DNA of 64,000 nt, from positions 31,461 through 95,460 of the forward strand of contig JAZNTA010000191.1 of NCBI GenBank assembly GCA_045591525.1, written 5' to 3'. The notes beneath the pieces were generated by a model. The model saw only the letters and a program-made list of their open reading frames with translations. It did not search any database and was not told the DNA's origin. Positions 36,637-57,790 of the stretch are shown here, piece by piece (the first letter of the stretch is position 1; every line of letters begins with the position of its first letter). This DNA is from Acutalibacteraceae bacterium. GTDB taxonomy: Bacteria; Bacillota; Clostridia; Oscillospirales; Acutalibacteraceae. A program made the translations under genes and the position numbers.

Positions 36637-37773
36637 TCATATTTTCAGTGGTCTCGAACCCTTCCTGGATTGAACTTTTTCTGATTGAGCTTCTAAAATT
36701 TCCATTAAAGCATCCATTTCCAAAGCAAATTCGCTCTTACCATTTCCGAAAACAATAAACTTGTCATTTGCTACATACATACTATTAATAGGTTGGCTTT
36801 TATTTGTGAAACTAAAATCTTTTTTATTCGCCAAATTTATTGTGATTGGTTCAGTATTTGGAAAATACTTTCTTATATCAATATCGAAACCATTAAAAGC
36901 AATTCCAGCTATTACACTTTTACTTTCAATATCACCAACATAATAATTGTCTATATCTTTTAATTTGAACAAGAACAAATTATTTTTGGGCAACCAATTA
37001 ATAAATTCAAAAGTTTTACCTTTCCAAACTGCCCCCTCATTTGAAATCACTCTTTTATTTTTATAGTCAAAAAAGCAACAATTTTTATAATGAATCCCGA
37101 AAACACCTGGCATTTTTATCCCATAAAAATATCTATCAGAGAAATCAAATATAGAAGGAGATAGATTTTTTAAATACCACCTGTCTACACCATATTGCTT
37201 TGCCGATTCAAAATTCAGAACAGTAATCTTTGCAGGAATCTCAAACTTAATGAATCCGTATTGTTGCTTTGGCTTTCGCATAATTAAAAATAATGTGAAT
37301 TTATTACTCTTTTTCTCAACAGATAAAAAACAACTATTTTCAATTTTTAACGCGATTTCACTTTTCTTGTTTTGTAAATCTGTAACAACTACACATTGAA
37401 ATTCTTCCCTGGGCTTGTATTGTTCAAAATAAATAAAAGTTACAATTTTATTTAAATCATCCAGAAAAAACATTGCTCTGGGCATAGCCTCTTCGGCAAG
37501 ACTAAACTCAGAAAAAATGTTTGTGATTTTTTCTGTTTTCAAACTTTTGGTATCTGTCAAATAAATATTTCCTCTATCATCAATATTCGCGATTTCATCT
37601 CCATTTTTGGAAATTGCACAAGCAGCTATTGCTTTCGGCAAATGAATTTTATTTTCTTCATTGTTTTTCATATTAATCAAGGTTGCTAACCCTGAACTAT
37701 ACAAATTGTATCTTAAGCAATAACCACCATCATCACTAAAGACAGTCGGTTTTATTGAACCTAACTTTATCAT
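36637..37773 (-). CDS. putative immunity protein for RHS toxin 2 (cytoplasmic, repeat-rich)
   Basis: Starts 14 nt after the RHS2 stop, its RBS lies inside the RHS2 3' end; no signal peptide. Confidence 0.5.
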   Translation of the reverse strand: MIKLGSIKPTVFSDDGGYCLRYNLYSSGLATLINMKNNEENKIHLPKAIAACAISKNGDEIANIDDRGNIYLTDTKSLKTEKITNIFSEFSLAEEAMPRAMFFLDDLNKIVTFIYFEQYKPREEFQCVVVTDLQNKKSEIALKIENSCFLSVEKKSNKFTLFLIMRKPKQQYGFIKFEIPAKITVLNFESAKQYGVDRWYLKNLSPSIFDFSDRYFYGIKMPGVFGIHYKNCCFFDYKNKRVISNEGAVWKGKTFEFINWLPKNNLFLFKLKDIDNYYVGDIESKSVIAGIAFNGFDIDIRKYFPNTEPITINLANKKDFSFTNKSQPINSMYVANDKFIVFGNGKSEFALEMDALMEILEAQSEKVQSRKGSRPLKI

Positions 37774-37786: not shown

Positions 37787-40700
37787 TTAATATAACGTGT
37801 TCAATCCGGAAAGTAAAATTTTGTAAAAGAGTAGTATACTGTACACACCATAATATCCACCTTTTTCATAAGCAGATTCAGTTGATTTATGAATGAGTGA
37901 ATAGTAAATATTAGTATTTAAGGCTCTATGAAAAGCAGCATCCAACATAACTAAATTTACTGGATCATTTATTGAAATGTAGCTCTTATCCAAATATTCA
38001 CTGCAATAAACCAATTCACCCTTTATACTAAAATAGACATTTCTTGGTGCAATATGATGTTTTTGTTGGCTGGAATCCGGCTTATTATTTCTAGCTCTAG
38101 TCAATATATCATCAATCACATCAGAAAGTTCTGCTTCTACTTCAGTATATGTACGCCGTATTAACTCAACAAAACCATCAACACCGGTTAACACACTATT
38201 ACCGAAATTATAAACAGCGCCACTTATTGCATCTAAAACATACGGATTACATAGCATGATTATTACTACGCATAAAATTAACATAACAAATGCATATTGT
38301 AAAAATGTGGTTATAGCTATCGTCATTCCACCTAAAACTATAAAACCTGCTAAATCCCCCCCGTAATCCACCATATTCACCGGATTATTATTACAATAAG
38401 CGAACAGGTTAGCTCCAAGAGGTGTGCCTTGGGTTGCTTCCAAGATTTCGATTGTATCCGCATTCAAGAACCTACCATAAGTCGGGTTATAATATCTTGA
38501 CTGCAGGTAATAAAGCCCTGTATGCGGGTCATACATGTATCCCCTGTAAGTTATCGGTGTGAAAATCACCGCAAGAACGGATTGAGCTAAAATATCGCTA
38601 TTTTCTTTATTATAAGTAGGCGAAACATTACCCCAGGAATCATACCAATAGGTAAGAACCTTTTCACCTTCTTCGTTATACACCCCGATTATATCTCCCT
38701 GTAAATTCTTTTCAAAGAAAAATCTTATATATTCATTATCTTCAACAAGGTGAATTTCATACCCTATTTGCTCACCTGAATTATCAAAGAAATTCTTTAA
38801 TACTGCAGCTACGTTTCCATCTGCATCAGTTGTGCAATATCCTGTCATTTTGCCATTTTCCCAGAAATAATTGAATACTGAATTTATTTCATTAGTTTCT
38901 GAATCTCGAAAAACGGCTTTTGTTCTCAAACCATCTGAATTATATGAATATTCATATCGTTCTCCTCCGACTGTTACTGCGGAAAGCTGTCTTCCATTCC
39001 ATTCAAGGATTCCTGAAATCTCATTGCTTATACCAATTGTAAAATAATTCAGCGGATTGCCCATCGCATCAGTATCAATCTGGAAATCTTCAAAGGCAGT
39101 CAATTTATCTTTCCATGTGCTATCATAAGTGTAGTCCCAAGTATCGTCGGGTTCTTCAGGAAGATCGCCTGTTGAATACTCATAAAATTTCCTTTGAACA
39201 AGGTTACCACCTTTATCATATACATAAACAGAAGTTACACCAGCAATTGCATCATTTTCTCTAACAAGCTGACCAACCTCATCATAAACATAACTGCAAA
39301 TTTCGGTTGCAATGGGCAAAACACCTGATGCATAATCATCACAACTTATTCTTGTAATGTTACCATTGCCGTCATACTCATAATAATACTGTTTACCATT
39401 TAAAACAGTTTCGGTAATAGTTGAATCATCACCTGAACCAACTATTTCAGAAAACGAAGTCTTATATGATGTTACCTGAGATGTGGTAAAGATTTTCCCC
39501 GGTTCTTCTTCGTTCTCATAATCTCTGTAGGTATATTCAACATTGTTTTTTATTGAATGGTTAACTCCGCTTTCCTGAGATAAAATATAGGAAAAGCTTT
39601 TATTGTCTGTTCGACCAAAATAATCTGTAACAGAAGAAAGGTTGTATTTCCTATCAGACGGAGTTCCGAATGAACTTATAGTTGTGGTAGTTCCCTCTAC
39701 ACTATCAGAATCAACTGTACCTTTATTTTCAGTGTATCTCAATCCACCTAAAATTTCAACAGGAATTTCATCTCCGTTTTCATCAGTTTCAAAACCTTTG
39801 AAATATATCGGTGTTCCCGTAGCATTCTGAGAATTATAATATTCCCATCCGTTATCAGTATATTTCACGGTACAATTATCTGTAACGCTTGTAATTGTCT
39901 GAACCTGACCATCAACATAACCATATACATAATCAGCAACCAGTGTTCCATCTGCAGAATAAGACTCTATAGATGTGATATTACCATCAGCATCATCATA
40001 GGTATAGACTGTATAATCTCCGTTACCGTAGGTTATTCGGTTCAATCGGTCGCGGGTTTTATCTGCTGAATCATAGGTATAGGAAACCAATTCCTGTTCC
40101 CCTACTTTAACCGCAGTCGGATTGCCCCAAGCATTATACTCATAATTATATGAAAAACCGTTATGGGTGATGCTCTTTATTCTGTCATTCTCATAGCTGT
40201 ATGAGGTTTCCATTTTGTTTCCACTTATAAGTCCGTTAACATCATTAGAAACTTTTTTAAGACGGCTCATAGCATCATAAGAAAAAGTTGTTACCTCATC
40301 TTTTCCGTCAGACATTGATAATAACTGACCATTCATCGGGTCATAGTTATATCCGTTATAAATTCCGTTTAAATCTGTTTGACTGCCGTAATAGTTACCG
40401 CTGACATTCTGCTCCATAGCCATTGTTTTTTCGCCATCGGTCATAGAGAAAGATTTTTTCTGAGAAGTATTTTCAAAGCTATAACCTCTGTTGCAATAAG
40501 GCAAAATACAGTTGTCAGAATGTTCGGTACAAGGGCAATTCGGTGTAGTGCAACCATTACATTCACATCCTGATGTTGCTTCTGATGTTCCTGAACTTGT
40601 ATTATTATTTCCAGCATTTTGTGATGCAGTTGCCTTATAGGTATTAACAAGGCTAACATCATCAAAACGCACTGTACCATATTGGAAATAATATGCAAGA

Positions 40701-43700
40701 GTTATTTGTATTTCATTATATTCAAAATCAATATCAAAGGCATAACTATATTTCTGCCAACTTGTATTATACGGATTAGCATCAACATAGGCAACTGTTT
40801 CCCATGTTTCATCACCATTGACATTATTTCGTGCTTCAATAATAACCGTATTCCAATATAATAATTCAAGTACCATATGGGAGTGAGTTGTATTTTTGGT
40901 AAAATAATCGAGACGATATTCATCACCTGATATGCCATTCTCTACATCTATTATTTGGCTTGCATAGCGAATACCGCTTTGAGTGCCACTCATCTGTAAT
41001 GAACCAGGAGTTGCGTTATCTGTTACGCAATCATAATTGACATTTCTCTTAACTTTTGACGTATTTGAAATTGTCCAACCGCTAACATCTGTTGAAAAGC
41101 TACCATTTGTAACAAGATTGGTTTCTTCAGATGTTGAATTCTGTTCAACTGTGTTATACATACTGTATGATACGTAACCTTGTGACTTGTAATTGTCGCT
41201 GTATATACGTGCAATTATACTGCCATCCGGATTTGTTGTGTTTATAACACGACCATACATATCAAACTGCTTGATTATTTCAACGTTACTTTTATCTGAA
41301 AATGTTTTTTCATATGCATTGACATCTGTAACTGTTAAAACTCCGCCTTCGGTTAGGCTTGTTCCACTTTGGTTATAGACTTTCTCAGAAATAACAGTAC
41401 TAGTATCAAGATAATTAAATTCAATAGAATAACCGTCAATATTTTTCAAAGATATGAGATTATCGTTTGCAGTATAATATACTGTTTCTCCATCCGGATA
41501 AGTTGCGGATGCTAATATTGGGAGCCCGTTTGTACCGCAATAATTTGAGAATTCATAAGTATATGTCATTTTATACGGCACATTGGTACCACTATCATTA
41601 GTTACTGTAATTGCTGAACCGCTTGGCGAAAATGCCTGAATAGAAGTAAGTAATGGTAATAACCAATCTTCGTATTCTGTGTATGTAAAACGATATTCTC
41701 TACCTACACCATCTGTTATTTTATCTATTCTGAGATTATCTGATGCATAAGAAATATTTATACAATTTTCAGAGTTTTCTTCTGAAGTGATTATTTTTGT
41801 AAGCAAACCATACGAATTGAATTCATATACCTGTCCACTTGAATCTTTAATCGTAGCATACTGCAACTTATTGGCAACATTACCATCATGTGTTGATGGT
41901 AAATATAAGGTATAACCATCAGTATTTGAAAATGTATCAGCTACTTCTTTCCAGGTTCTTATGCCTTCTGATACTGTATCTGTTTTTTCAAAATATGTCG
42001 TTTGTCCATCACCATTACAGTAAAGTATATATTCTTTACCATCAATTTCATCATGATACTCAATCATTTGATTATAGTTGGTTCGCCAACCGAAACCATA
42101 CGGAGAAGCAAATCCGGATAAAGCATAATAATTTATTGAATTTGTACCGCCAAAACCACTATTAAAATAGCGCTTTATCTGAACGGGCATATTTATTCCA
42201 GATAAACCTAGTTCATCGCGTTCAATATAAATTTGCTCTGTAAAATCGTTAAAATATGCTGTACCCGCTCTGCCTACATCAAAAGCGTGATAATCGAACT
42301 GTTCTTCAACACCTTGGGACTCATAATATTCGATCGTAAAATACGGCTGTTGAGAAGCTGTTGGATGTTCTGATGAAGCAAACATTGTCAACACTTCACT
42401 CTCCACGGCATCTCGTTGTCTGATACATACTCCATAGGTGTCTTCATTTATTGTGTATGCTTTCGTTACATCAAAAGTTATGTATCTTGCAGCATCGCCT
42501 TCACTTACAGGTCTTCTATCTATAAGACTGTTTATTGTTGTTGGTTTTGTATTATATGTTACTGTTGATTCGCTCCAATCACTTGTTACTGTATATGCAG
42601 CAATAGTTGTATCATTATCAACAAATAGTCCGCCTGCATAATAAAGACTTAAAAGTACAGATTTTATTTTTGCACCATTTTTCAAAATATAATAACTTGA
42701 TAAATCAATATAAGAAAGATAATCCCCAGAATCAGATTTACAAGTATATAGGAACTCGATGTCTCCATAGTTTGTAGTAGGTTCTCCTTCACATACTACT
42801 GCATCCTTTATACCCAAATCTTCGTTAGCTGAGTTTATGACAGGGTCTATTACTACAGGATATTCAACATCACCTGACAACCATTCGTACGATGGTTTAT
42901 ATATTAATGTGTATTTACCATTCTTGCCAGTTAAATTCACATCAATATCGTCTGATATTATGTTATTTGCATCATACATAATAGGAGCTGGAATTTCGAA
43001 AATGATTTGTCCGTCAGGATTTTTAAATACTATCGACTTATCCTTATTAAGCGTTGCATTCAATTTTTTTGCATTAATTATATACTTATAAGTTACTTCA
43101 GATGCCGGCTTTTTATTAAGAATAATATTTTCTTTTAGGCCTGTTGAAGTTACTGCGTATTCTACTGAAGTGTTTTCACCTACATTTTCAAAAGAAATAG
43201 CGGAAGTTTTATCTAAAAAATCAGTTTCTACACCATTTTCAAGAACCTGATGTTTTTTGTTTTTAGATTTTTTATTTCCCTTGATTTTTTTATTCTTTGA
43301 AAAAACATCTGTACCGACAAGTTCAAACGAAAGTGAATAACCCTCTTTTTCTATTTGAACTTTTTTATTAGATGATAATTCCTTAGGAATAGTTGTGGTG
43401 AAGTCATTATTTTTATTTTTATAAACTTTACCTGTAATTTCATTGAATTCTATTAATGTATTATCAATATTTTCCCATCCGTTTTCTGTTTCATAATGAA
43501 TTGGTGTTGCTGATACTACAGCAGTTTTTGTGCCTGAAACATTTTGAAACACCTTTGTATATTTATCTCGTTCGCTTATGATTTCAACTGCAAAATCGTT
43601 TGCATCTGTTCGATTTGCAAATTGTTCTATTGTTTGAGTCAAATGTTCATTATTTTGAATTTCAGCTGCAAAAACCGGGTTTGATACAGAAAAAATGCCC

Positions 43701-43753
43701 ATAATCATCAAAAAACTCAAAACAACTGATAAAAACTTACTGATCTTTTTCAT
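37787..43753 (-). CDS. RHS/YD-repeat polymorphic toxin 2 (Sec signal, DNRLRE-like and CBM-like domains, RHS shell, TM segment plus AHH/HNH-like C-terminal nuclease)
   Basis: Signal peptide ...PVFAAE; YD repeats; core end 'NNPVNMVDYGGD'; C-terminal 'QQKHHIAPRN...NLVMLDAAFHRALN'. Confidence 0.9.
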   Translation of the reverse strand: MKKISKFLSVVLSFLMIMGIFSVSNPVFAAEIQNNEHLTQTIEQFANRTDANDFAVEIISERDKYTKVFQNVSGTKTAVVSATPIHYETENGWENIDNTLIEFNEITGKVYKNKNNDFTTTIPKELSSNKKVQIEKEGYSLSFELVGTDVFSKNKKIKGNKKSKNKKHQVLENGVETDFLDKTSAISFENVGENTSVEYAVTSTGLKENIILNKKPASEVTYKYIINAKKLNATLNKDKSIVFKNPDGQIIFEIPAPIMYDANNIISDDIDVNLTGKNGKYTLIYKPSYEWLSGDVEYPVVIDPVINSANEDLGIKDAVVCEGEPTTNYGDIEFLYTCKSDSGDYLSYIDLSSYYILKNGAKIKSVLLSLYYAGGLFVDNDTTIAAYTVTSDWSESTVTYNTKPTTINSLIDRRPVSEGDAARYITFDVTKAYTINEDTYGVCIRQRDAVESEVLTMFASSEHPTASQQPYFTIEYYESQGVEEQFDYHAFDVGRAGTAYFNDFTEQIYIERDELGLSGINMPVQIKRYFNSGFGGTNSINYYALSGFASPYGFGWRTNYNQMIEYHDEIDGKEYILYCNGDGQTTYFEKTDTVSEGIRTWKEVADTFSNTDGYTLYLPSTHDGNVANKLQYATIKDSSGQVYEFNSYGLLTKIITSEENSENCINISYASDNLRIDKITDGVGREYRFTYTEYEDWLLPLLTSIQAFSPSGSAITVTNDSGTNVPYKMTYTYEFSNYCGTNGLPILASATYPDGETVYYTANDNLISLKNIDGYSIEFNYLDTSTVISEKVYNQSGTSLTEGGVLTVTDVNAYEKTFSDKSNVEIIKQFDMYGRVINTTNPDGSIIARIYSDNYKSQGYVSYSMYNTVEQNSTSEETNLVTNGSFSTDVSGWTISNTSKVKRNVNYDCVTDNATPGSLQMSGTQSGIRYASQIIDVENGISGDEYRLDYFTKNTTHSHMVLELLYWNTVIIEARNNVNGDETWETVAYVDANPYNTSWQKYSYAFDIDFEYNEIQITLAYYFQYGTVRFDDVSLVNTYKATASQNAGNNNTSSGTSEATSGCECNGCTTPNCPCTEHSDNCILPYCNRGYSFENTSQKKSFSMTDGEKTMAMEQNVSGNYYGSQTDLNGIYNGYNYDPMNGQLLSMSDGKDEVTTFSYDAMSRLKKVSNDVNGLISGNKMETSYSYENDRIKSITHNGFSYNYEYNAWGNPTAVKVGEQELVSYTYDSADKTRDRLNRITYGNGDYTVYTYDDADGNITSIESYSADGTLVADYVYGYVDGQVQTITSVTDNCTVKYTDNGWEYYNSQNATGTPIYFKGFETDENGDEIPVEILGGLRYTENKGTVDSDSVEGTTTTISSFGTPSDRKYNLSSVTDYFGRTDNKSFSYILSQESGVNHSIKNNVEYTYRDYENEEEPGKIFTTSQVTSYKTSFSEIVGSGDDSTITETVLNGKQYYYEYDGNGNITRISCDDYASGVLPIATEICSYVYDEVGQLVRENDAIAGVTSVYVYDKGGNLVQRKFYEYSTGDLPEEPDDTWDYTYDSTWKDKLTAFEDFQIDTDAMGNPLNYFTIGISNEISGILEWNGRQLSAVTVGGERYEYSYNSDGLRTKAVFRDSETNEINSVFNYFWENGKMTGYCTTDADGNVAAVLKNFFDNSGEQIGYEIHLVEDNEYIRFFFEKNLQGDIIGVYNEEGEKVLTYWYDSWGNVSPTYNKENSDILAQSVLAVIFTPITYRGYMYDPHTGLYYLQSRYYNPTYGRFLNADTIEILEATQGTPLGANLFAYCNNNPVNMVDYGGDLAGFIVLGGMTIAITTFLQYAFVMLILCVVIIMLCNPYVLDAISGAVYNFGNSVLTGVDGFVELIRRTYTEVEAELSDVIDDILTRARNNKPDSSQQKHHIAPRNVYFSIKGELVYCSEYLDKSYISINDPVNLVMLDAAFHRALNTNIYYSLIHKSTESAYEKGGYYGVYSILLFYKILLSGLNTLY

Positions 43754-43881: not shown

Positions 43882-43912
43882 TGCAAGAAAATATTGTCAA
43901 ATTGCAAGAAAA
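43882..43912 (-). promoter_or_regulatory. double-repeat box e
   Basis: Identical to box c; 129 nt upstream of the RHS2 ATG. Confidence 0.65.
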
Positions 43913-43932
43913 AGCAATTCATAAATAACAAA

Positions 43933-43963
43933 AACGACACACAAAACAAAGTTGTGTATCGTT
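43933..43963 (-). terminator. intrinsic terminator
   Basis: AACGACACAC...GTGTATCGTT then a T run on the minus strand. Confidence 0.6.
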
Positions 43964-43983
43964 TCTGCAGACAAGAGTTTATA

Positions 43984-46900
43984 CTATTGTAGATAAGCTA
44001 CAATTTGGCTATACTGAGGTTCTTTAAAAGACGGGTAGTTATATCGGTGCTTTATATTCTCACAAATACAAATACAGGAAAGTGCTATTATCATAGCAAG
44101 TCTAAGCACTATATTTTGTACAACAAAAGTATATGTTGTAAACAAAACTAAACTAGCACATAATGACAAAGCAATGGTAAAATAACTGTAATCAATAACT
44201 TTCATTAATTTGTAAACAATAAAACATATAAAAAATATACTGGCTAAAAACAACAAGTACATAGAGTTAAATGGCAGTATTGAAACTTCACTTATAGCAC
44301 TGTTTTTAACTTCCCATCCCTTGTATACTAAATTATAAATTTGAATCCTATAAAAAAGATATATTACTGTTTGTGATATAAATAGGAGAAAAACTATTGC
44401 AATAATAACTTTATTTAATATTGGAGCATTTATTGCTCCGTTATATACGAATAGATCATTAAATTTGTTTTGTTTACACCTGTTCCAATGATAGGAAAAC
44501 TCAACTGAAGAAATCATCTTAAAATCAGGTATATTAATTAAATCACTATGAATCTCACCCGACTCATCACTTAAAATATAACTAATTAAAAATTTCACAC
44601 GATTATCAATCAGTGATATATTTGGATTAAAGCCATCTTTAATTAATTCTTTAACAAGATATATTAGTGTATATAAAACTTCAATTTCAGAATAATCTAA
44701 TTTTTCTATCCAACCATACTTTCCTTGCAGAACATTAACACTCTTTTTTACTTTATAATCTAATGTATTTACAAACCTTTTTAATTTTAAAAAACTAAGC
44801 AATTCGTTATCTTCAGCCATAAACAACAATCCCATTATTGCTAAATCTTTATTATATTTAGAAGCGTTATAAAGATATATATTATATATTGCATCAAAAC
44901 GATACTCTTTTGCAAGGCATTCAATAAAATCTCTTTTCTCATCAAGTCTATTGATTATGTCTATTATTAAATTCGAATAGTCTTTTATCTCTTCTCCTGA
45001 AAATCTTACCAAATCATCTATTTTTATACGATTTATGTTAGAATTTAGAGCACTCTTTATTTGTTCATCTGGACCTAAAGACATTAACCCAACAATAATA
45101 TTTACACTTGTTTGTTTACTTTTGCAATAATCCAATTTTGCTATTAATTCTTGTAGAACTAAGCTTCTAACGGCTCTGTATTGCTGCGCTATATAACCAA
45201 TTGCTTGTAAATTTATTATTTCATCGTAATCTATTGATGGTAAAATATTTTTTAATATATTAACAACATTCTTTTCATCGGATAGCGTTCTTTCAACAAG
45301 AACATCCAACACTGTTTTTGTATCATACAAATATTTAGATAAAAAATCCAATACTATTTCATCATTTTCTACTAAGGATAAATAGAAAAATATTATATTT
45401 TCTTTACCTTTAGTATATTGAAAAGAGCTAGGTGGTGTGCAAGTGTTTTTAACAAAATATAAAGCAACAAAATACTCATAAAAAGAACGATGTCTAAACC
45501 GTAATAAATTAGTGTCTGTTTTCTCTAAAAGGCCGCTTTGGTTTATTATGTTGTCTAAAACCTCTTGCGTTCTACCGTGATAGTATATTTTTTCCGTTTC
45601 GTGAGAACTCCACAATTTAAGAGCTGTTGATTCGGATATATTATTTCCATTACCTGAATATATTTCGTACGCTAATTGTGACAACAACTCAACTTTTATT
45701 TGAACATTTGGTAGTAATGTAAATCTTTTAAAACGTTTTAATCTTGATTTTTGCTCCTCCCAGTTTTCTAATAAACATTTACAGCATTGTTCGTATAAAT
45801 GTGTTTTACTTTGGGAAAACACAAAATCTGATTTACAATATGTGTGAGTTACCATTGTAAGCAGCAATGGGTTTGAAACTACATTTTCTAATTGAACAGT
45901 ATTAATTAGTCTGTGAAAAAATTGTGTATCGGATTTATCTTTTGGGAAAGACCATTTAGACAAGAACTCGCGTATTTGTTCCTTTGAAAGAGGAGAAAGA
46001 TACACTGTATTTTCAATTCTAATATTTTCGAAGCGTTCCGATTCATAAACTTGTGTTCTAGATGTTATAATATAGTTACATTCACTATAAGTGTTTATGA
46101 ACTCTAATAAAAGTTTCGAAAATTCAAGTCTATCATCTATGTTAACAATCTCGTCGTAACCATCGAACATTAACACAAATTTTCCTGTACTTAAAAAACG
46201 TTTTAAAACTTTTGCAGTTTTTTCTTTTTTTTCACTAAACAACCACCCCCGCTTTACACCCGAAATTTCAGAAATTTTTTTATAAATAAACTCAATAATA
46301 TCTTCTTCACTACTACACTTATAAACATCAGAAAAATTAATGATAATTGGAATAAGTCTATTATTAGACGCCTTTCTCTGTGACGAATTTAACGTTCTTT
46401 TTAAAAATTTTTTATTATTAGGGCGTGCTGTATCATATACACCATCCAATATGTCCAAAGCTAATTTATATAAAGAAAAAGTTTTGCCTTCGCCTGCATT
46501 ACCAAGTATTGCATAAACAGAAGGGCTACCACTAAGTTTTTTAGTAAAATAATTTTGCAACTTATATTCTTTAACTCCGTCTTTTTGGTGTACTTTTATT
46601 GAAACGTAAATATCGTTAGGTAAATTATTTGAAAACCATGAATGTTCTTGGCTTGGAAATAAGGTATATCTTAGATTTCTTGTGTATTTGTATTTTATTA
46701 AACGAGAGGTTTTATTAAATATTATCAAAAAAGAAAAAAATGCAAGTAATCCACTCGATACTATACTTATTATCTCTGGCGTAATATATTCCTTGATAAA
46801 GGAATCATTCCCAGTATTCAAAACACCAGTATCGCTTTCGCTATATATAACAGTATTTTGATTTCTATCACTATCAGATGATTCCACACTTTGAACTAAT

Positions 46901-47436
46901 TCCTCTAATTTGTTTTGAGAGTAGTCAGCGTTATTATGCGTGTGTAAAAATTCACACTTAAAAGAGGCTATTCTAAATGTTTCATCAATAAATTTGATAG
47001 TTCTATCGTTATATATAACATCATATGTTTTAATTTTATTTTCCAGTGGAAAACATATAACGCATGAATTATCACTTGTGAATATTATAATAACATCTGT
47101 TTTACTACCAGGCGTTTGTTCACTTTGAGTCCTATTCCACATAAAATCAGGGTTACTTTTAACTACATGTGAAACAAGTTCTAGAGCTTGATCTGTTATC
47201 GGTTGGCGCTGATATTCCCCTTCTATATCCATTTTTAAACTTGCATATTTATTTTTTATTGTTAAAAGCATTTTTTCGCTTATATTTTCGGGGATTTTAT
47301 CAATGCTACCTTCATATTCATTCTGTGTTCTTAATTGTTCATAATCAATTGATAAGTCTGTGCCATTTTCAAACAACATAGAAAAACTAATAAAACAATA
47401 GGCAATGATAATTATAATCAGTACAATTCTCTTCAA
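43984..47436 (-). CDS. membrane-embedded NACHT/STAND P-loop NTPase
   Basis: Walker A 'GNAGEGKTF', Walker B 'FVLMFDGYDEI', 'IITSRT'; TM helices at the N-terminus, near residue 250 and about four at the C-terminus; start TTG 47436 after GAGGGA (ATG 47508 alternative). Confidence 0.8.
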   Translation of the reverse strand: MKRIVLIIIIIAYCFISFSMLFENGTDLSIDYEQLRTQNEYEGSIDKIPENISEKMLLTIKNKYASLKMDIEGEYQRQPITDQALELVSHVVKSNPDFMWNRTQSEQTPGSKTDVIIIFTSDNSCVICFPLENKIKTYDVIYNDRTIKFIDETFRIASFKCEFLHTHNNADYSQNKLEELVQSVESSDSDRNQNTVIYSESDTGVLNTGNDSFIKEYITPEIISIVSSGLLAFFSFLIIFNKTSRLIKYKYTRNLRYTLFPSQEHSWFSNNLPNDIYVSIKVHQKDGVKEYKLQNYFTKKLSGSPSVYAILGNAGEGKTFSLYKLALDILDGVYDTARPNNKKFLKRTLNSSQRKASNNRLIPIIINFSDVYKCSSEEDIIEFIYKKISEISGVKRGWLFSEKKEKTAKVLKRFLSTGKFVLMFDGYDEIVNIDDRLEFSKLLLEFINTYSECNYIITSRTQVYESERFENIRIENTVYLSPLSKEQIREFLSKWSFPKDKSDTQFFHRLINTVQLENVVSNPLLLTMVTHTYCKSDFVFSQSKTHLYEQCCKCLLENWEEQKSRLKRFKRFTLLPNVQIKVELLSQLAYEIYSGNGNNISESTALKLWSSHETEKIYYHGRTQEVLDNIINQSGLLEKTDTNLLRFRHRSFYEYFVALYFVKNTCTPPSSFQYTKGKENIIFFYLSLVENDEIVLDFLSKYLYDTKTVLDVLVERTLSDEKNVVNILKNILPSIDYDEIINLQAIGYIAQQYRAVRSLVLQELIAKLDYCKSKQTSVNIIVGLMSLGPDEQIKSALNSNINRIKIDDLVRFSGEEIKDYSNLIIDIINRLDEKRDFIECLAKEYRFDAIYNIYLYNASKYNKDLAIMGLLFMAEDNELLSFLKLKRFVNTLDYKVKKSVNVLQGKYGWIEKLDYSEIEVLYTLIYLVKELIKDGFNPNISLIDNRVKFLISYILSDESGEIHSDLINIPDFKMISSVEFSYHWNRCKQNKFNDLFVYNGAINAPILNKVIIAIVFLLFISQTVIYLFYRIQIYNLVYKGWEVKNSAISEVSILPFNSMYLLFLASIFFICFIVYKLMKVIDYSYFTIALSLCASLVLFTTYTFVVQNIVLRLAMIIALSCICICENIKHRYNYPSFKEPQYSQIVAYLQ

Positions 47437-47575
47437 TACTATTCCCTCATTAAATATTAATTTTATACTAAACTCACTGTTTACTGAAAAAACTAATAAG
47501 CAAAACATATATAAAAATTAGTTTAATAAATATTTATATCATAATTGATGATATAAAAAAGTGTTTTTTACAAAC

Positions 47576-47606
47576 TGCAAGAAAATATTGTCGAAATGCA
47601 AGATTT
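47576..47606 (-). promoter_or_regulatory. double-repeat box f
   Basis: TGCAAGAAAAtattgtcgaaaTGCAAGATTT upstream of the NACHT gene. Confidence 0.6.
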
Positions 47607-47731: not shown

Positions 47732-48292
47732 TTAAATTTTACAACTAATTTTAAGAACATCTACAGCATCTTGTATTGTAATTATTCCATCTTGATTTGC
47801 ATCTGCGAGATATTTCTCCGTTTCCGTACTTATTTGTGTCTGACCTGCTGCATCCCTTAATATTGTACGTGCATCATCAGTCGTGATTTTACCATCTTGA
47901 TCTATATCACCTAAATAAGAGTTATTGGGCGTCATATAATAATCTTTGAAAGCTTTTTCCACATAATTATCTTTAGAAAGGGCTTCGAAAATACTATTAA
48001 ATTTATCTTCATCCAATTCCTGTAAGTTTAAAACTAAAATCAAATAGTTTTCACTAGAAACATTTCCATCTTCAGAAGTGATTTCTACTTTTTCAATTGG
48101 ATAAGTGCTTTGCAAGTGATTAATAATAATTTCGGCTTCTTGACTATATTCGTCTTTTATAATTACAATAATCTTGCGAAAAGAATATTTTCCATTCTCA
48201 TCAACACCCCAACAATTAGTTGCATAAGCATTACTTATAAACAAACCAATTAATAACACTATTAGCACTACAATACTTATGAATTTATTCAT
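47732..48292 (-). CDS. secreted dockerin-containing protein
   Basis: Signal peptide ...SNAYA; C-terminal type-I dockerin repeats 'GDIDQDGKITTDDAR' and 'ADANQDGIITIQDAV'. Confidence 0.75.
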   Translation of the reverse strand: MNKFISIVVLIVLLIGLFISNAYATNCWGVDENGKYSFRKIIVIIKDEYSQEAEIIINHLQSTYPIEKVEITSEDGNVSSENYLILVLNLQELDEDKFNSIFEALSKDNYVEKAFKDYYMTPNNSYLGDIDQDGKITTDDARTILRDAAGQTQISTETEKYLADANQDGIITIQDAVDVLKISCKI

Positions 48293-48305: not shown

Positions 48306-49095
48306 TTACTGATAAAGCGAGAATTCTAGCTGTTGGCCACTCGCTACACGTAAAATTTCTCTCGCATCATCTTGTGAAATATTTGCATCTCCGTTAACAT
48401 CCGCTAATACAAATTGTACAACTGTAACACTGCTTGCATTATTGGAAGCTGTAAGTGCTAAGGATGCATCAGCTGTAGTTATTGTACCATCACTGTTTAC
48501 ATCACCCATAATATAACTATCAGTTGAACTTGTTTCTATATAATATCCTATAGCGGAATTAAAAAATGTTGAGGCATCCTTCACGGTATCATATGAAATC
48601 CAGCCATAACCTCCAAGTCCCCAATCTGTGCCCCAAGAATTTATAAATTTGAATGCACCACTATCCCCCATATTGTCATCATAACCAATTAAGCATATGG
48701 TATGGTTAGCCTGTTTAGAGCCTGAAACAGTATCATATATACTATTGTTTGAGTTTAAATTAGTGAAGTCTGGGTATATTTCAATACCTATTACAACACC
48801 GTAATTCTGATAAATTTTTTCTTTTATATTCTTAATACCCGCTATTGTATGGGTAGTGCATTTATATAAGTTGGCATTTGCTATTTGTCTTGCTTTGGAA
48901 AGTTTGAGGTTTTATCGACAGACGCTGGTAATGTTAATCTTGTTTCTGCTGTTGGTTCCATACGTTCTAATATTTCTGCGTATGAATCTGGTATCAACCC
49001 CGTTTTATAGGTGAAATTTTCACTAGCCGAGCCTGGTACCTGTAAATATATCAGTATTAGAGATAAAGATATTATTACTGAAAAAACTTTTTCAT
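48306..49095 (-). pseudogene. degraded papain-like (C1) peptidase-dockerin gene
   Basis: Intact C-terminal half ('ANHTICLIGYDD', 'NSWGTDWGLGGYGWISY', dockerin). The signal peptide and 'LPASVD' lie in another frame, after a frameshift in the A6 run at 49081-49086. The catalytic-Cys region is absent. Confidence 0.65.
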
Positions 49096-49303: not shown

Positions 49304-50590
49304 CTATCTGTTTTTCAATATCATTATAGTTGTGATGAATTCTCTATTGTGTTCATCATATTCCCAAGTATAATCGCCATTATATTTTTTCAATGTGTTT
49401 TTTAGACTTTTCAATCCAAAGCCATGAAATCTTTTATTGTTTTTAGTTGTTTTTAAAATTAAATTATCAGAAATCGGTTTTTCATCACAACTATTTCTTA
49501 CAACAACTATATCATATGTGTTCCTATGATCTGTAAAGAAATCAACATATTTATCTTTTGATTTTTCTGCCGCTTCGACTGCATTATCTAATACATTACC
49601 CAAAATTGCAACTAAATCATACATCTCTACACCCAGAAGATTTGAGAGCCTAACATCATAAGTAAAATTTATTCCTTTCAATTCACACTCTGTAATGTAT
49701 TTATTTATGATAACATCAAGATAATGATTGCCACTATGAGCTGTTTGGCTATATTTTCTCAACTCTACTTGCATTTTGGTAAGATATTTATCAATTTCTT
49801 CATTAGAACTTAACTCTTTAATTGCAGCAAGATGTTTTTGTGTATCGTGAGCATATATAGCTAAATTCTCATTCTGTTGTTCAAGTATCTGATAATATGT
49901 TTTATCATTTTCCAATTTAGTTAGTTCACTTTCCAACCGCAATAATTTTGTTTCTTTGTCAACACTGCGTCTATAAGAAACAAAAATCAAAATAGTTGAC
50001 AACAAAAGCGAAAAACTTATTATTGAAATTATATACTTATAAGTTTGCGACAAATGAAAATCACTATTTATACTCCACAAAAACAACAATACAACAATTA
50101 CAACAATAGGATAAAAATAATATGTTTTTGGTATCGGAGTTGAGGTATCTTTTGTTTTAATAAATTTAATTAACAAAAGGCAACAAAAGAAATAAATAGT
50201 CTTACTTATAACAACATTTAACAAATATTGCGACACATCATGTGAGTTTGCAATTACATCTCTGTTTAACACTATGGATATAATAAAAATTGTTATGTAT
50301 TCAGTACAAGTTGACATGATATCAAGAATAATTGATAAAAAAATGGATTGCTTTAAATTAATATTAAAACAACAAAAAGCAAAAACCATGTTTATTATAA
50401 GGAAACAAACAAGATTCAACCATATGGTTGAAAAGAAAAGATATACTGTTGCACCTAATCCAAATGTTATTAACCCTATAGCACAGCAAAAAAGATGGCT
50501 CTTTTTTCTATTGCTAACTTGGCTGAAAAAATAATATGAAATAAACAGTTCAAGTAAATATACTGCTGATACAGACAAAATTTCTGACAT
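49304..50590 (-). CDS. AgrC-like (HPK10-type) sensor histidine kinase
   Basis: 6-7 N-terminal TM helices, H-box 'YAHDTQKHL', GHKL ATPase 'LGNVLDNAVEA...HGFGLKS'. Confidence 0.8.
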   Translation of the reverse strand: MSEILSVSAVYLLELFISYYFFSQVSNRKKSHLFCCAIGLITFGLGATVYLFFSTIWLNLVCFLIINMVFAFCCFNINLKQSIFLSIILDIMSTCTEYITIFIISIVLNRDVIANSHDVSQYLLNVVISKTIYFFCCLLLIKFIKTKDTSTPIPKTYYFYPIVVIVVLLFLWSINSDFHLSQTYKYIISIISFSLLLSTILIFVSYRRSVDKETKLLRLESELTKLENDKTYYQILEQQNENLAIYAHDTQKHLAAIKELSSNEEIDKYLTKMQVELRKYSQTAHSGNHYLDVIINKYITECELKGINFTYDVRLSNLLGVEMYDLVAILGNVLDNAVEAAEKSKDKYVDFFTDHRNTYDIVVVRNSCDEKPISDNLILKTTKNNKRFHGFGLKSLKNTLKKYNGDYTWEYDEHNREFITTIMILKNR

Positions 50591-50591
50591 G

Positions 50592-51290
50592 TCATTTACC
50601 TCTTAAATACATAAACCAATATTTATGGAAATCTGCTTGTTTTCTCGTTGCAACGGATATTCTGATATCTTCGTTAATAAAAACTTCTGTATAAGAGTAC
50701 TTTGTAACATAATGCAGATTAATTAGAAAACTTTTATGAACTTGATAAAAAAATGTATTAGGTAATTTTTCTTTCCAATATTCCAAAGTCTGAGTTATTT
50801 TATATTCACCGTTTTTTGTGACAACAATAATCTCTCTGTTTTCTCGCTTAATATAATAGATATCGTCTACCAATACCTTTAAATGTGTTCCTCCTTGAGC
50901 AAGATAAACATCAACATATGTTTCGTCTAAATACTCTAATGCTTTATCTAATCCAGAATATAATCTATTAACATCAAAAGGTTTCTCAAAGAACCTAAAA
51001 ACTCGCAAATCCATAGCGTCATCCTGAAATTCGGGATAATTGGTTACGAAAAAAACCACTACTTTACTGTTTCTTCGTTTTAATTCTTTTGCAACAGTTA
51101 AACCATCAATATTACCCAATTGGATATCTAAGAAAGCCAAGTCAAAAACATCTTTACCTGTGATAATCTCTTGGGCAGATGTTGAAACGACATATTCTGG
51201 TTTAATAAAGTGATTTTTCATATATTCTTCAACATGCAATCTCAATTCATCCAAGTAATTGGATTGATCATCACATAAAAGTATTTTCAC
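50592..51290 (-). CDS. LytTR-family response regulator (AgrA-like)
   Basis: Receiver 'ILLCDDQ...FLDIQL'; C-terminal LytTR 'FYQVHKSFLINLHYV'; AGAGGAGG RBS plus GTG 51290. Confidence 0.85.
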   Translation of the reverse strand: MKILLCDDQSNYLDELRLHVEEYMKNHFIKPEYVVSTSAQEIITGKDVFDLAFLDIQLGNIDGLTVAKELKRRNSKVVVFFVTNYPEFQDDAMDLRVFRFFEKPFDVNRLYSGLDKALEYLDETYVDVYLAQGGTHLKVLVDDIYYIKRENREIIVVTKNGEYKITQTLEYWKEKLPNTFFYQVHKSFLINLHYVTKYSYTEVFINEDIRISVATRKQADFHKYWFMYLRGK

Positions 51291-51310
51291 ACAAAGACCT
51301 CCTCTTATAA

Positions 51311-51335
51311 ACAAAAACTACCACGATTGTGGTAG
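51311..51335 (-). terminator. hairpin between the XRE gene and the response regulator (terminator or attenuator)
   Basis: CTACCACaatcGTGGTAG followed by TTTTTGTT on the minus strand. Confidence 0.5.
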
Positions 51336-51362
51336 CAAGTTTAGCACAAATATTATTTTTAG

Positions 51363-51680
51363 TCAAATACTGCCAATATACAGTTCAATAAAAGATTTAA
51401 GAAATTTTTGATTGTCTGGTGGACACTTTGACAACAAACAAATTATATCATTTTCTGTTTTCGTATCAATTCTACCAATAAGATAGTAATCAGGTGTACC
51501 GCCTAAAACTTCACACAAATCTAATATAGTAGATGTTGTAGGTAGACATTTCCCTCTTTCCATGCTTGATATATGGTTTTTGGAAAGAGAAAGTTTTTCA
51601 GCCAATTCTTCTTGTGTTATTGATTTTTCCTTGCGTTTTTGCATTATCCGTATACCAATAAGTCTATTATCAAATTGCAT
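51363..51680 (-). CDS. XRE-family HTH regulator
   Basis: 'ITQEELAEKLSLSKNHISSMERGK' HTH_3 pattern. Confidence 0.8.
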   Translation of the reverse strand: MQFDNRLIGIRIMQKRKEKSITQEELAEKLSLSKNHISSMERGKCLPTTSTILDLCEVLGGTPDYYLIGRIDTKTENDIICLLSKCPPDNQKFLKSFIELYIGSI

Positions 51681-51782: not shown

Positions 51783-51812
51783 TTTTTTTGTGTAATATTG
51801 TGATTTCTTGCA
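51783..51812 (+). promoter_or_regulatory. partial double-repeat box in + orientation upstream of the agrD-like/agrB genes
   Basis: ATTTCTTGCA (51803-51812) matches the box repeat; the partner about 20 nt upstream (TTTTTTGTG) is degenerate. Confidence 0.35.
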
Positions 51813-51896
51813 AAAAAACACAAATTTATAGCAATTTAAAAAATTCATTGAAGGAGCTTTATTTTTTATGATATCATTCTTTCGGAGGTGTTATAA

Positions 51897-52049
51897 ATGA
51901 AAAATTATAAAATCAAATTTAACCAAATTATGAAAAACAGTATTGAAACTGCATTAAAACTTAATGCAAACAACACATCATCAACTGTTCTTCATCAACC
52001 CAAGGCCCCAGCAAAATTGAAAAAATTCAGTAAAATCAGTTCTAAATGA
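51897..52049 (+). CDS. agrD: AgrD-like autoinducing-peptide precursor (50 aa)
   Basis: GGAGGTG RBS; amphipathic N-terminus; 'SSTVL-HQPKAPAKL' resembles the clostridial AgrD ring plus QPxxPxxL tail; stop overlaps the agrB ATG (ATGA). Confidence 0.6.
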   Translation: MKNYKIKFNQIMKNSIETALKLNANNTSSTVLHQPKAPAKLKKFSKISSK

Positions 52050-52642
52050 TTGGTCGATTATCTGAAAAGATAGTTTCGTACCTAATCGCTTTTGAAACTA
52101 TACCCGAAGCAGAGCGTGAATTATATCAATACGGAGTATTTTTATTAATTTCTCAAATACTATATTTCACCGTAACACTGATATTTGGATTTGCATTGGG
52201 TATAGTCTTTGAAAGCATTGTTTTTTTTATTGCATTTCAAAGTATTCGTCAGATCGCAGGTGGTTATCATGCCACTACTGAAACAAGGTGTGAAATTCTA
52301 TCTGCTGGAGCTATTTTATTAAGTCTTATTTTTATCAAACTAGTTAACGAAAATGCGCTGTTCACATATACATTAGCTATAGCTTTAGTATGTGCTAGTG
52401 TAATTTTTTTATTGGCACCATTAGATACTGTTCAAAGACTGTTGTCAGATGATGAGTATATTGCATTTCGTAAAAAAACACGCGTTATTCTCATAGTTAT
52501 CATAACAGTAATAGCAGTTTCTTATATTATGAAAATAAATATTGTTTTTACTTCCTGTTGCACAAGTCTAATCCTAGAGGGATTTTTACTTTTGGTAGGG
52601 AAAATAAATAGAGAAAGTATAAATTCAAACACCTGTGAATAA
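52046..52642 (+). CDS. agrB: AgrB-family peptide-processing membrane protease
   Basis: 'RQIAGGYHATTETRCEILS' (conserved R..GG.H......C), multiple TM helices, 198 aa. Confidence 0.85.
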   Translation: MIGRLSEKIVSYLIAFETIPEAERELYQYGVFLLISQILYFTVTLIFGFALGIVFESIVFFIAFQSIRQIAGGYHATTETRCEILSAGAILLSLIFIKLVNENALFTYTLAIALVCASVIFLLAPLDTVQRLLSDDEYIAFRKKTRVILIVIITVIAVSYIMKINIVFTSCCTSLILEGFLLLVGKINRESINSNTCE

Positions 52643-53986: not shown

Positions 53987-54049
53987 TGCTGGATATATAA
54001 ATGTTGTTGTGATAGTGTTGTGTCGAAATCAAGTAAAGGTGGTGCAATA

Positions 54050-56731: not shown

Positions 56732-57790
56732 ATGAGTTTACAAAAATATTTTATTGAGTTTAATGACACAATAAAAATGGATTTTGACGTTAAAAGTGAA
56801 TTAAAAGAGAAAAGAGATATATTATTAGGCATATTAAGAAACTCTGATGATTTGCCTTCATTTTCAGAATACAATCAAGGTAGTTATAAAATGAATTTGG
56901 GTGTAGAACCTTTAGATAAAGAATATGATATTGATGTTGGTCTTAGATTCAATGCTAATAGTAAAGATTACACCCCCATGGAGTTAAAAAATATTATTTA
57001 CGAATTATTGAAAAACCATACTGATTATGGAGCGACAATAAAAAAGCCATGTGTAACCGTTACATATAAGAAAGATGGTGAAGCGGCGTACCATGTTGAT
57101 TTAGTAGTATACACATATGAAGACAAGGACGATACTAGTAGTCAACTTTTTCTTGCTCGGGGTAAAAGTAGTGAATCAGACGAAACTTGTTGGGAAAAGT
57201 CTGATCCTGTTGGATTGGTTGATTATGTAAGTGAAAAGTATTATGGTGATGACCATAAAGATGATAGAGAACAATTTAGACGTATTATAAGATACTTAAA
57301 AAGGTGGAAAAACAAGAGATTTAGTAATACAGGAAATGCTGAACCACCTAGTATTGGTATTACATTAATAGCTGTTGAGATGTTTGAGGTTTCTAAAACA
57401 TATGATGTTTTAACAAAAAAAGATTCATACAATGATTTTGATGCATTACTAAAGTTTTTGAAGGAATTAAAAACTTTGTTTGTCTATGTTGGTACATCTG
57501 ATACTGGTAGAAAACTTTACAAAATAGAATATAATTTACCAAGCACACTGAAGTTTGAAAATAATGTTAATATTTTTAGGAAGATGACTAATAATTATAT
57601 GACAGATTTCAAGGAAAAAGTAGATTCATTAATAGCGGATTTAGAAAGTGTTGAAGCCGAAGTTGATGAAGTAGAGCAGTGTGTTCAGTTGCGTAAAATT
57701 TTCGGTGACTCTTTCCCGGTACCTGAAAAAGAAACTGCATCAAAAAAACAAGTTGAATATATTTCTAGAACCAGTGCATCGGGAGTCTAA
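56732..57790 (+). CDS. CD-NTase (cGAS/DncV-like nucleotidyltransferase, SMODS)
   Basis: 'QGSYKMNLGVEPLDKEYDIDVGL' (GS...DxD) plus downstream 'HVDLV'; followed by Cap2 and Cap3. Confidence 0.8.
   Translation: MSLQKYFIEFNDTIKMDFDVKSELKEKRDILLGILRNSDDLPSFSEYNQGSYKMNLGVEPLDKEYDIDVGLRFNANSKDYTPMELKNIIYELLKNHTDYGATIKKPCVTVTYKKDGEAAYHVDLVVYTYEDKDDTSSQLFLARGKSSESDETCWEKSDPVGLVDYVSEKYYGDDHKDDREQFRRIIRYLKRWKNKRFSNTGNAEPPSIGITLIAVEMFEVSKTYDVLTKKDSYNDFDALLKFLKELKTLFVYVGTSDTGRKLYKIEYNLPSTLKFENNVNIFRKMTNNYMTDFKEKVDSLIADLESVEAEVDEVEQCVQLRKIFGDSFPVPEKETASKKQVEYISRTSASGV

Follow-up and report, generated by a model that had tools for sequence, protein, structure and literature searches.

To our knowledge, the mechanistically understood immune receptors of the STAND (signal transduction ATPases with numerous domains) and NLR (nucleotide-binding leucine-rich repeat) type in animals, plants, fungi and bacteria are all soluble and sense their ligands in the cytoplasm. 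Is it possible to gate an NLR-type switch from the outside of the cell or from the membrane itself, and can transmembrane (TM) helices alone act as its effector? A compact, single-gene test case for both questions is offered by a gene family with a member in a 64,000-nucleotide stretch of DNA from an Acutalibacteraceae bacterium (Clostridia; GenBank assembly GCA_045591525.1, contig JAZNTA010000191.1, positions 31,461 to 95,460), which is referred to as the window. The gene encodes a 1150-residue protein in which a NACHT module is flanked on both sides by predicted TM helices. An original prediction, made from the sequence alone, had described it as a membrane-embedded NACHT NTPase, and the analysis presented here followed up that description. 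The reading that we tentatively place first is an NLR-like switch in defence or conflict, with the protein's own TM helices as the putative effector.

NACHT module and membrane segments

The motifs on which the original prediction was built, GNAGEGKTF (Walker A), FVLMFDGYDEI (Walker B) and IITSRT (sensor-1), were found at residues 312-320, 420-430 and 456-461, and the protein matched the Pfam NACHT model (PF05729) with 32.0 bits against a gathering cut-off of 26.7 (E = 1.3e-7; profile positions 2-163 of 167). GNAGEGKT (312-319) satisfies GxxGxGK[ST], and DGYDE (425-429) satisfies D[GAS]hDE, the Walker B signature of NACHT as defined by Kibby et al. (bioRxiv 10.1101/2022.07.19.500537). These are followed by NPLLLTM (residues 522-528) and by a winged-helix motif, FRHRSFYEYFVA (FRHRSFYEYF; residues 647-658), which is conserved among the homologues. 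Across 14 sequences, G312, A314, G315, G317 and K318 of Walker A and D425, G426, Y427, D428 and E429 of Walker B were invariant, as were the key residues of sensor-1, of NPLLLTM and of the winged-helix motif.

An AlphaFold2 model of the full-length protein had a mean predicted local distance difference test (pLDDT) score of 72, with values of 80-93 across most of the cytoplasmic part. When this model was compared with the PDB using Foldseek, the best matches were NLRC4, NOD2 and NLRP3 (E = 8e-10 to 1e-7), and the TM-score against the isolated NLRP3 NACHT was 0.55. By sequence, neither the family profile nor the NACHT region alone gave any match in the PDB. The winged-helix motif FxHxSFxEYF(V/I)A is common to the animal NLRs and the present protein, at a sequence identity of only 12-14%; the animal receptors are soluble, with leucine-rich repeat sensors and CARD or PYD adaptors, whereas the present protein is a predicted integral membrane protein with no adaptor domain. 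Judged from its motifs and predicted fold, the gene product is a canonical NACHT-clade STAND NTPase with an NLR-like fold that includes the helical and winged-helix extension. The module is followed by helical repeats of the HEAT/ARM-like kind, and Pfam HEAT_2 matches were obtained in distant relatives.

Six TM segments were predicted at residues 4-22, 220-242, ~1006-1030, ~1057-1078, ~1085-1105 and ~1108-1128 (Kyte-Doolittle, 19-residue window, peaks 2.1-2.9). They coincide with helices of the AlphaFold2 model and are retained in the homologues; none lies inside residues 301-680, so that all of them flank the NTPase. Hydropathy, the model and 13 homologues therefore agree with the proposed order of one N-terminal TM helix, a second one, and about four more after a helical region. 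The N-terminus carries MKR ahead of TM1, the 20 residues after TM2 contain 5 K/R and no D/E, and the loop between TM1 and TM2 is acidic (19 K/R vs 34 D/E). Applying the positive-inside rule to this charge distribution gives a predicted topology in which the NACHT with its helical region and both ends of the protein, the conserved tail included, are cytoplasmic, and the 197-aa loop lies outside. The loop had been described as an outside segment of roughly 220 aa; the positive-inside rule upholds its placement, while its length came to ~197 aa, with only residues ~45-165 folded. A lipoprotein signal at the N-terminus was also considered and was dismissed, as no lipobox stands ahead of the conserved Cys in TM1.

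The folded part of the loop, hereafter the ecto-domain, was modelled alone as a β-rich domain. Its Foldseek matches were nearly all of the lipocalin/calycin type and weak, with a best E of 7e-3 and a TM-score of ~0.37; they included hydroxynitrile lyase, tick lipocalins, odorant-binding proteins, fatty-acid-binding proteins and LolA. We treat this likeness of the predicted fold as a lead and not as an assignment. Conservation by region was expressed as mean pairwise identity, and was highest in the C-terminal tail (69%), followed by the juxtamembrane segment (56%), the helical and winged-helix part of the NACHT module (54%), the nucleotide-binding domain (48%) and the helical repeats (44%). 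TM3-TM6 reached 29%, the ecto-domain 28%, which makes it the fastest-evolving folded part, and the linker behind it 14%. A fast-evolving ecto-domain and linker next to conserved cytoplasmic modules and tail is, as far as the alignment can tell, the pattern expected of an exposed sensing surface. The ecto-domain is lost in P0013 and in relatives of ~960 aa, and low-complexity sequence stands in its place in P0012. Because it can be absent or substituted in this way, the comparison suggests that it is an accessory input and not the core of the mechanism.

The distinctive motifs of the family are LFPxEHSWFGNNSP and KHRNNYPSFKEPQY, and kin of the tail, NPF[KQ]/...[YF]L, were found across the wider superfamily. 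The juxtamembrane motif and the C-terminal tail, both cytoplasmic and close to the membrane, may contact each other or a partner. A search of 5.8 billion protein clusters with the C-terminal TM-plus-tail module (17-sequence alignment A2) returned no matches at E <= 1e-3, and it is uninformative, as the family's own members were missed too.

The absence of a nuclease, protease or TIR effector, which had been noted at the outset, was also the outcome of the domain searches. Pfam, NCBIfam and PADLOC detected no domain beyond the NACHT/STAND models, that is, no nuclease, protease, TIR, SIR2, kinase, cyclase or DNA-binding domain, and the TM segments and the unassigned ecto-domain are the only parts that belong neither to the NACHT module nor to the repeats. 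The AlphaFold2 model, proposed earlier as a check, reproduced an NLR-like NACHT module, a β-rich ecto-domain and C-terminal TM helices at the hydropathy positions.

Family, novelty and regulation

The search of the 5.8 billion clusters identified 13 full-length homologues at 35-44% identity, and a second profile search of this collection added only a fragment, P0032. Among 185,579 species, each represented by one genome, four homologues were present, in Clostridia, Acutalibacteraceae and one metagenome-assembled genome labelled Opitutales, and the JGI metagenomes held two loci, both of the P0001 type. The members carry no source name other than 'hypothetical protein'. Carriage of the family by prophages found no support, as the viral contigs gave only generic NACHT proteins. 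The 90% cluster of the window's own protein has a 136-aa fragment (P0161, from a 16.9-kb contig) as its representative, which is probably why the homology searches gave no self-match; the fragment may indicate that a related strain has the gene in truncated form.

When 1.84 billion representatives were searched exhaustively with a profile, 116 clusters were obtained at E <= 1e-30. A second tier of ~1020-1080 aa has the same C-terminal TM helices and a tail of the form HKNN[MY]PSF..PQ[FY], with a different N-terminus of 2-3 TM helices and short loops. In the third tier (~960 aa), a single TM helix precedes the NACHT and the helical repeats, and 3-5 TM helices follow at the C-terminus. The distant P0014, P0077, P0089, P0095 and P0102 have two N-terminal TM helices ~90-100 aa apart, with Pfam HEAT_2 in some. 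By sequence, the plan of TM, NACHT, helical repeats, multiple TM helices and tail thus defines a modest superfamily.

No already characterised clade of bacterial NACHT (bNACHT) or Avs proteins was found to hold the protein: PADLOC-DB v2 gave 0 families at E <= 1, and the sole NCBIfam match was EruA (NF058535), with 32.8 bits against a cut-off of 1000 and over residues 443-691 of a longer, 1174-aa form only. That bacterial NACHT proteins are generally soluble, as originally stated, stands as a generalisation with known computational exceptions, namely the wider TM-flanked superfamily and the 'TM regions' that are a recognised class of C-terminal region in bacterial NACHT proteins (Kibby et al., bioRxiv 10.1101/2022.07.19.500537). 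The same authors predict that TM-type members sense intra-membrane or periplasmic signals. No member of the present family was identified in their Table S1, where TM annotations are absent from the text, and a TM-type bacterial NACHT with a described mechanism was not found in the papers searched.

Compared with this class (Kibby et al., bioRxiv 10.1101/2022.07.19.500537; Kaur et al. 2020, PMC7159879), the present protein shares a NACHT with D[GAS]hDE and a winged-helix extension, a single-gene unit, TM segments where a soluble sensor or effector would otherwise be, HEAT-like repeats behind the NACHT, and a sporadic occurrence in mobile or defence-type neighbourhoods. It differs in having TM segments on both sides of the NACHT, a folded ecto-domain of ~120 aa between two N-terminal TM helices, the KHRxNYPSFKEPQY tail, a Clostridia origin, probable control by an Agr-type quorum-sensing system, and no PADLOC or NCBIfam defence model. 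The validated bNACHT/Avs (AVAST) proteins have an enzymatic or adaptor effector domain, whereas none is recognisable here with Pfam, NCBIfam or PADLOC. The TM-bearing class is thus already known computationally, and the present family and any mechanism are not. What is new is the ecto-domain, the TM segments on both NACHT flanks, the conserved tail and the putative quorum-sensing box, in a family that is very rare, unnamed and outside PADLOC and NCBIfam.

Sites bound by regulators of the LytTR family, AgrA, ComE and VirR among them, consist of direct repeats about 21 bp apart. The shared promoter box that the original prediction had pointed to, CTTGCA-N15-CTTGC, is present in 7 copies, all of them intergenic and on the minus strand, from 25.1 to 49.3 kb of the window. 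By shuffling, 0.70 +/- 0.86 copies were expected, and 0 of 100 shuffles reached 8. The consensus, TTTCTTGCAATTTGACAATATTTTCTTGCAGTTTGTAA, is a pair of direct repeats with a 21-nt period, and the invariant columns read CTTGC..TT..ACA....TTTCTTGC..TT.G. The genes below the boxes, all on the minus strand, are a subtilase, two sets of small unknown open reading frames (ORFs), RHS toxin 1, RHS toxin 2, the NACHT gene and a dockerin unit. The box was not present in any of the 19 fetched loci, those of the main homologues included.

An Agr-type quorum-sensing locus spans 49304-52642, immediately upstream of this regulon. By analogy, the box is probably a binding site of the adjacent LytTR regulator. 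Because the repeat geometry is LytTR-like and a locus with agrD, agrB, kinase and LytTR genes is adjacent, we infer that the NACHT gene is most likely a quorum-sensing target alongside the two RHS toxins; if so, an NLR-like conflict device of gut or rumen-type Clostridia would be tied to the sensing of cell density. A degenerate box, CTTGCA-N15-ATAGCA, was seen at 51807..51833 (+) ahead of the AgrD-like ORF, and it may provide autoinduction of AgrD/AgrB.

The NACHT gene itself is taken to be an intact gene of 1150 codons at 43984..47436 on the minus strand. The longest reading frame extends over 43984..47508 and counts 1174 aa from an ATG, which is the form recorded for this protein in the protein collection. 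The start was placed at the TTG at 47436, as in the original prediction, because a GAGGGA site (47448..47443) precedes it with a 6-nt spacer, the full-length homologues begin with MK[RK] and a hydrophobic run in register with it, and the in-frame ATG at 47508, which would add 24 aa, is without a ribosome-binding site. One box copy (47577..47602) stands 141 nt upstream of this start. Given that box and a terminator-like hairpin after the stop codon, the gene is most likely its own, monocistronic transcription unit as far as the sequence indicates. Co-transcription with the downstream RHS gene was ruled out by the terminator and the separate box in between.

Candidate functions

A bona fide NACHT switch that comes with no effector but TM helices is most economically read as a membrane-acting NLR-like device. 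In the mechanism that we propose, the cytoplasmic NACHT and helical repeats would be tethered at both ends, by TM1, the ecto-domain and TM2 on one side and by the four-helix TM bundle with its tail on the other. Transcription would be licensed at high cell density by the neighbouring Agr-type system via the LytTR-type box, and the resting protein would be an ADP-locked monomer. A trigger, perceived at the envelope by the ecto-domain or TM bundle and/or by the cytoplasmic repeats, would lift autoinhibition; candidates are phage entry or assembly, and envelope damage from a competitor's toxin or peptide. The NACHT module would then exchange its nucleotide, the protein would oligomerise, and the clustered helices, six per protomer, would perturb or perforate the membrane, which would arrest the growth of the attacked or infected cell or kill it (abortive infection or altruistic death). 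Of these steps, the trigger, the oligomerisation and the action on the membrane are hypothesised.

Such an effector would have company. TM proteins are the usual suicide effectors of known defence systems (PMC9122126), and STAND effectors are normally N-terminal, a position that the TM segments occupy here in addition to the extreme C-terminus (Kibby et al., bioRxiv 10.1101/2022.07.19.500537). The TM effectors of CBASS (cyclic oligonucleotide-based antiphage signalling system), Pycsar and type III CRISPR systems, such as 2TM-SAVED and Cam1, are small modules; once activated, they oligomerise and the membrane is depolarised. They are triggered by a diffusible nucleotide from a separate sensor enzyme, whereas here sensor or switch and TM module form one polypeptide. 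In the plant ZAR1-type CC-NLR resistosome and the fungal HeLo-domain NLR partners, STAND oligomerisation gathers helices into a membrane channel or pore with no enzyme effector. These systems provide a functional analogy only, with no homology outside the NTPase module, and their helices insert after activation of a soluble protein, whereas the six TM helices here are predicted to be constitutively embedded. PifA, of the KAP family, is likewise a large, single-protein, membrane-associated P-loop NTPase that acts in abortive infection (against T7), and a homologue of it adjoins the family member P0012; KAP NTPases belong to another NTPase family without a NACHT signature and have TM helices inserted inside the P-loop domain, where those of the present protein flank it.

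The genomic contexts of homologues also speak for a defence role. In L007, the homologue is directly preceded by genes for a restriction enzyme (1e-58) and a methyltransferase (4e-122) of type II, with a type IV secretion coupling protein downstream; in L008, PifA (2e-83) is immediately upstream; and in L009-L011 a HerA-like ATPase is found upstream (3e-26 in L009). Defence genes thus adjoin homologues in L007, L008 and L009, mobile-element genes occur in L001 (two tyrosine integrases downstream, excisionase-like helix-turn-helix genes upstream) and L007, and the window itself contains CBASS. A defence gene was the immediate neighbour in 3 of about nine independent contexts (restriction-modification, PifA, HerA-like), a sample too small for statistics; the other contexts were the peptide operon described below, the quorum-sensing and RHS island, or uninformative. 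No partner gene is conserved across the loci. Taken together, the contexts of the gene and its homologues look like conflict neighbourhoods, with defence genes, mobile elements or secreted weapons, and the patchy and rare distribution of the family and its varied contexts are typical of conflict genes.

Several points weigh against a lethal defence switch. The linkage to a peptide operon described below and the co-regulation with RHS toxins are no less compatible with antagonism between bacteria or with peptide signalling than with phage defence. TM3-TM6, which would form the pore, are poorly conserved (29% identity), and pore formation is hypothetical. As in soluble NLRs, the part that actually senses could be the cytoplasmic helical repeats, and the absence of the ecto-domain from P0013 and the ~960-aa relatives implies that external sensing is not the core mechanism. 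The LytTR assignment of the box draws on repeat geometry and adjacency only. Among the relatives, P0014, a distant one of similar architecture, has no defence genes nearby, and the viral contigs held no close relative, only generic NACHT relatives at 22-28% identity. The lack of any PADLOC-DB match, reported above, belongs on this side as well.

Part of this evidence fits a non-lethal TM receptor, which is possible, if less probable than the switch. Here the lipocalin-like ecto-domain would bind a small hydrophobic or peptide ligand outside the cell, for which an autoinducing peptide, a RiPP (ribosomally synthesised and post-translationally modified peptide) or bacteriocin, or a lipid-linked envelope intermediate are candidates, and the NACHT, as a nucleotide-dependent switch, would relay this to a membrane or protein output, which could be scaffolding, control over export or immunity, or communication with the quorum-sensing kinase. 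The matches of the ecto-domain model are of the lipocalin/calycin type, although too weak in E and TM-score to carry an assignment. In L005, L006, L014 and L015 the NACHT homologue is the last gene of a conserved RiPP-like operon, on the same strand and with gaps of 24-131 nt, behind genes for an HprK-related kinase A-like protein, an S24/S26 peptidase-PqqD fusion, a radical SAM/SPASM maturase, ACP-FkbH and NTP_transf_5. An XRE helix-turn-helix gene is in the operon of L006, L014 and L015, and two ABC exporters in that of L014 and L015 only; the operon proteins share 60-95% amino-acid identity among the four loci. These loci form one subclade, marked by a C-terminal ...FNDIHIG extension, and the linkage may be a single ancestral event. 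By tblastn the operon is absent from the window, so that the linkage is clade-specific. The place of the window gene within the Agr/LytTR box regulon and the prediction by Kibby et al. of intra-membrane or periplasmic signal recognition by TM-type NACHTs also agree with a receptor, whereas the lack of an output domain (DNA-binding, kinase or cyclase), the dispensability of the ecto-domain in some members, and the restriction-modification, PifA and HerA-like genes next to others do not.

In a bolder form of the switch, which we consider unlikely as a whole, the protein would be a true transmembrane NLR. Quorum sensing would license the whole device, the ecto-domain and TM bundle would sense an outside or in-membrane signal, and once the NACHT had oligomerised, the protein's own six TM helices would serve as the pore. 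Candidate signals are a phage component at adsorption or injection and a competitor's peptide or toxin. If this were true, it would be the first STAND/NLR protein shown to sense across a membrane, with sensor, switch and pore in one polypeptide.

More doubtful is an anchored NLR-like defence protein that senses in the cytoplasm, in which the repeats would bind a phage protein, the TM helices would only localise the protein, and an unlinked effector would be recruited by the tail. The helical repeats are at the canonical sensor position and are well modelled, the highly conserved tail (69%) and the juxtamembrane motif look like protein-interaction sites, and adaptor-type bacterial NACHT effectors are known (Kibby et al.). 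Six TM helices and an ecto-domain would, however, be a large investment for mere anchoring, and the want of a conserved partner gene across the loci also counts against it. An ordinary anchored defence protein would still add a defined, rare family with a clear motif set to the catalogue of bacterial NLRs.

The least probable is a self-protection or accessory factor for secreted weapons, one that would guard the producer's membrane from the RHS toxins or RiPP product, for example by sensing an incoming sibling or competitor toxin and mounting immunity, or would help to deploy them: the box common to the NACHT gene and two RHS cassettes, the position behind a RiPP-like export operon in four loci, and the large proteins upstream of the homologue in L002 (secreted-type, including a 1065-aa β-helix protein; large β-helix and unknown proteins precede the homologues throughout L002-L004) fit it, but RHS genes are missing from every homologue locus examined, the RHS cassettes already have small ORFs downstream, where immunity genes usually lie, no known immunity protein or export accessory resembles a STAND ATPase of 1150 aa, and the NACHT gene is its own transcription unit with a terminator ahead of the RHS promoter. 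The present evidence does not decisively tell apart the switch, the non-lethal receptor, the anchored sensor and the self-protection factor; the NLR-like switch with its own TM helices as effector ranks first, and the non-lethal receptor is its main rival.

Feature coordinates and further neighbours

The coordinates of the features are collected in Table 1.

Table 1. Features of the NACHT gene, its product and their surroundings. Positions are those of the window, except for the last four rows, which refer to homologue loci; numbers such as 6e-22 are the values of the family matches.
Feature	Position	Strand	Remarks
Coding sequence, membrane-embedded NACHT protein	43984..47436	-	1150 aa, TTG start; stop codon 43984..43986
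Shine-Dalgarno GAGGGA	47443..47448	-	6 nt before TTG; read directly from the sequence
Terminator-like hairpin	43928..43968	-	17-bp stem, T-rich tail, 16 nt past stop codon; parts the gene from the next box and RHS unit
NACHT gene's box	47570..47606	-	Direct repeats TCTTGCAtTTcGAC and TCTTGCAGTTTGTA, 21 nt start to start; putative LytTR response-regulator site
TM1	47371..47427	-	Residues 4-22; signal-anchor helix or possibly cleavable signal peptide
Extracytoplasmic β-rich domain (predicted)	46942..47304	-	Residues ~45-165 (~120 aa); 8 strands and 1 helix, pLDDT 80-91 modelled alone
Variable acidic polar linker	46792..46941	-	Residues 166-215, pLDDT < 50
TM2	46711..46779	-	Residues 220-242; then K/R-rich stretch SRLIKYKYTRNLRY
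Juxtamembrane motif LFPxEHSWFGNNSPxDIYVS	46600..46662	-	Residues 259-279, predicted cytoplasmic, conserved
NACHT module (nucleotide-binding, helical, winged-helix domains)	45397..46536	-	Residues ~301-680
Walker A GNAGEGKTF	46477..46503	-	
Walker B FVLMFDGYDEI	46147..46179	-	
Sensor-1 IITSRT	46054..46071	-	
NPLLLTM	45853..45873	-	
Winged-helix motif FRHRSFYEYFVA	45463..45498	-	
All-helical repeats, predicted cytoplasmic	44542..45396	-	Residues ~681-965 (~285 aa), pLDDT 80-93
C-terminal membrane domain, four TM helices	44053..44421	-	Residues ~1006-1128; conserved VQNxxFR turn between TM5 and TM6
C-terminal tail E-x-IKHRxNYPSFKEPQYSxIxxYL, predicted cytoplasmic	43987..44061	-	Most conserved segment
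Seven box copies	25164-25189, 27663-27688, 35017-35042, 36446-36471, 43883-43908, 47577-47602, 49235-49260	all -	Two direct repeats, 21-nt period
AgrC-type GHKL kinase	49304..50590	-	6e-22
LytTR response regulator	50592..51314	-	4e-19
XRE-type helix-turn-helix gene	51363..51680	-	
AgrD-like 50-aa ORF	51898..52050	+	MKNYKIKFNQIMKNSIETALKLNANNTSSTVLHQPKAPAKLKKFSKISSK; just upstream of AgrB, overlaps AgrB start
AgrB	52046..52642	+	1.5e-34; divergent from kinase and regulator genes
RHS/YD-repeat protein 1, ~2000 aa, Sec signal	28711-34887	-	Own box; C-terminal tip unassigned
RHS/YD-repeat protein 2, ~2000 aa, Sec signal	37787-43753	-	Own box; CBM96, DUF6531, C-terminal AHH nuclease tip
Dockerin protein	47732..48292	-	
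Large serine recombinase	54020..55642		Precedes CBASS
CD-NTase	56732..57790	+	1e-109
Cap2 E1-E2	57797..59515	+	8e-187
Cap3 JAB	59481..59999	+	3e-47
2TM/SAVED-TM effector	59944..60786	+	5e-86; 12 kb from NACHT gene
RiPP-like operon, L005	4838-9607		
RiPP-like operon, L006	881-5674		
RiPP-like operon, L014	1524-9908		
RiPP-like operon, L015	1484-9870		

The gene had originally been placed between toxin cassettes. This is correct for the downstream flank, where the RHS-AHH toxin (37787..43753) is located; the upstream flank is made up of dockerin proteins and a degraded peptidase, followed by the agr-type locus. Two ORFs, 36637..37773 and 28059..28691, lie downstream of the RHS genes in the immunity position and gave no family matches.

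A complete type II CBASS (56732-60786, +) is located 9.3 kb upstream of the NACHT gene. Because a large serine recombinase precedes it, the region is probably a mobile defence island.

What appears to be a degraded gene at 48306-49100 (-) has a signal-peptide-like start near 49094 and is broken by stops or frameshifts. Within it, a 121-aa ORF (48306..48671) resembles the last part of a papain-like peptidase (NSWGTDWG...) with a dockerin behind it, and the whole is probably a pseudogene under box 7. The dockerin protein of the next gene (47732..48292) hints at a Ruminococcus-like host that bears cellulosomes.

The minus-strand island has at its left edge a 510-aa pentapeptide-repeat protein (21945-23477, -) next to the subtilase (Peptidase_S8; 23577-24923, -), which is the gene under box 1. 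The GC skew flips at ~22 kb and ~52 kb, on either side of the island.

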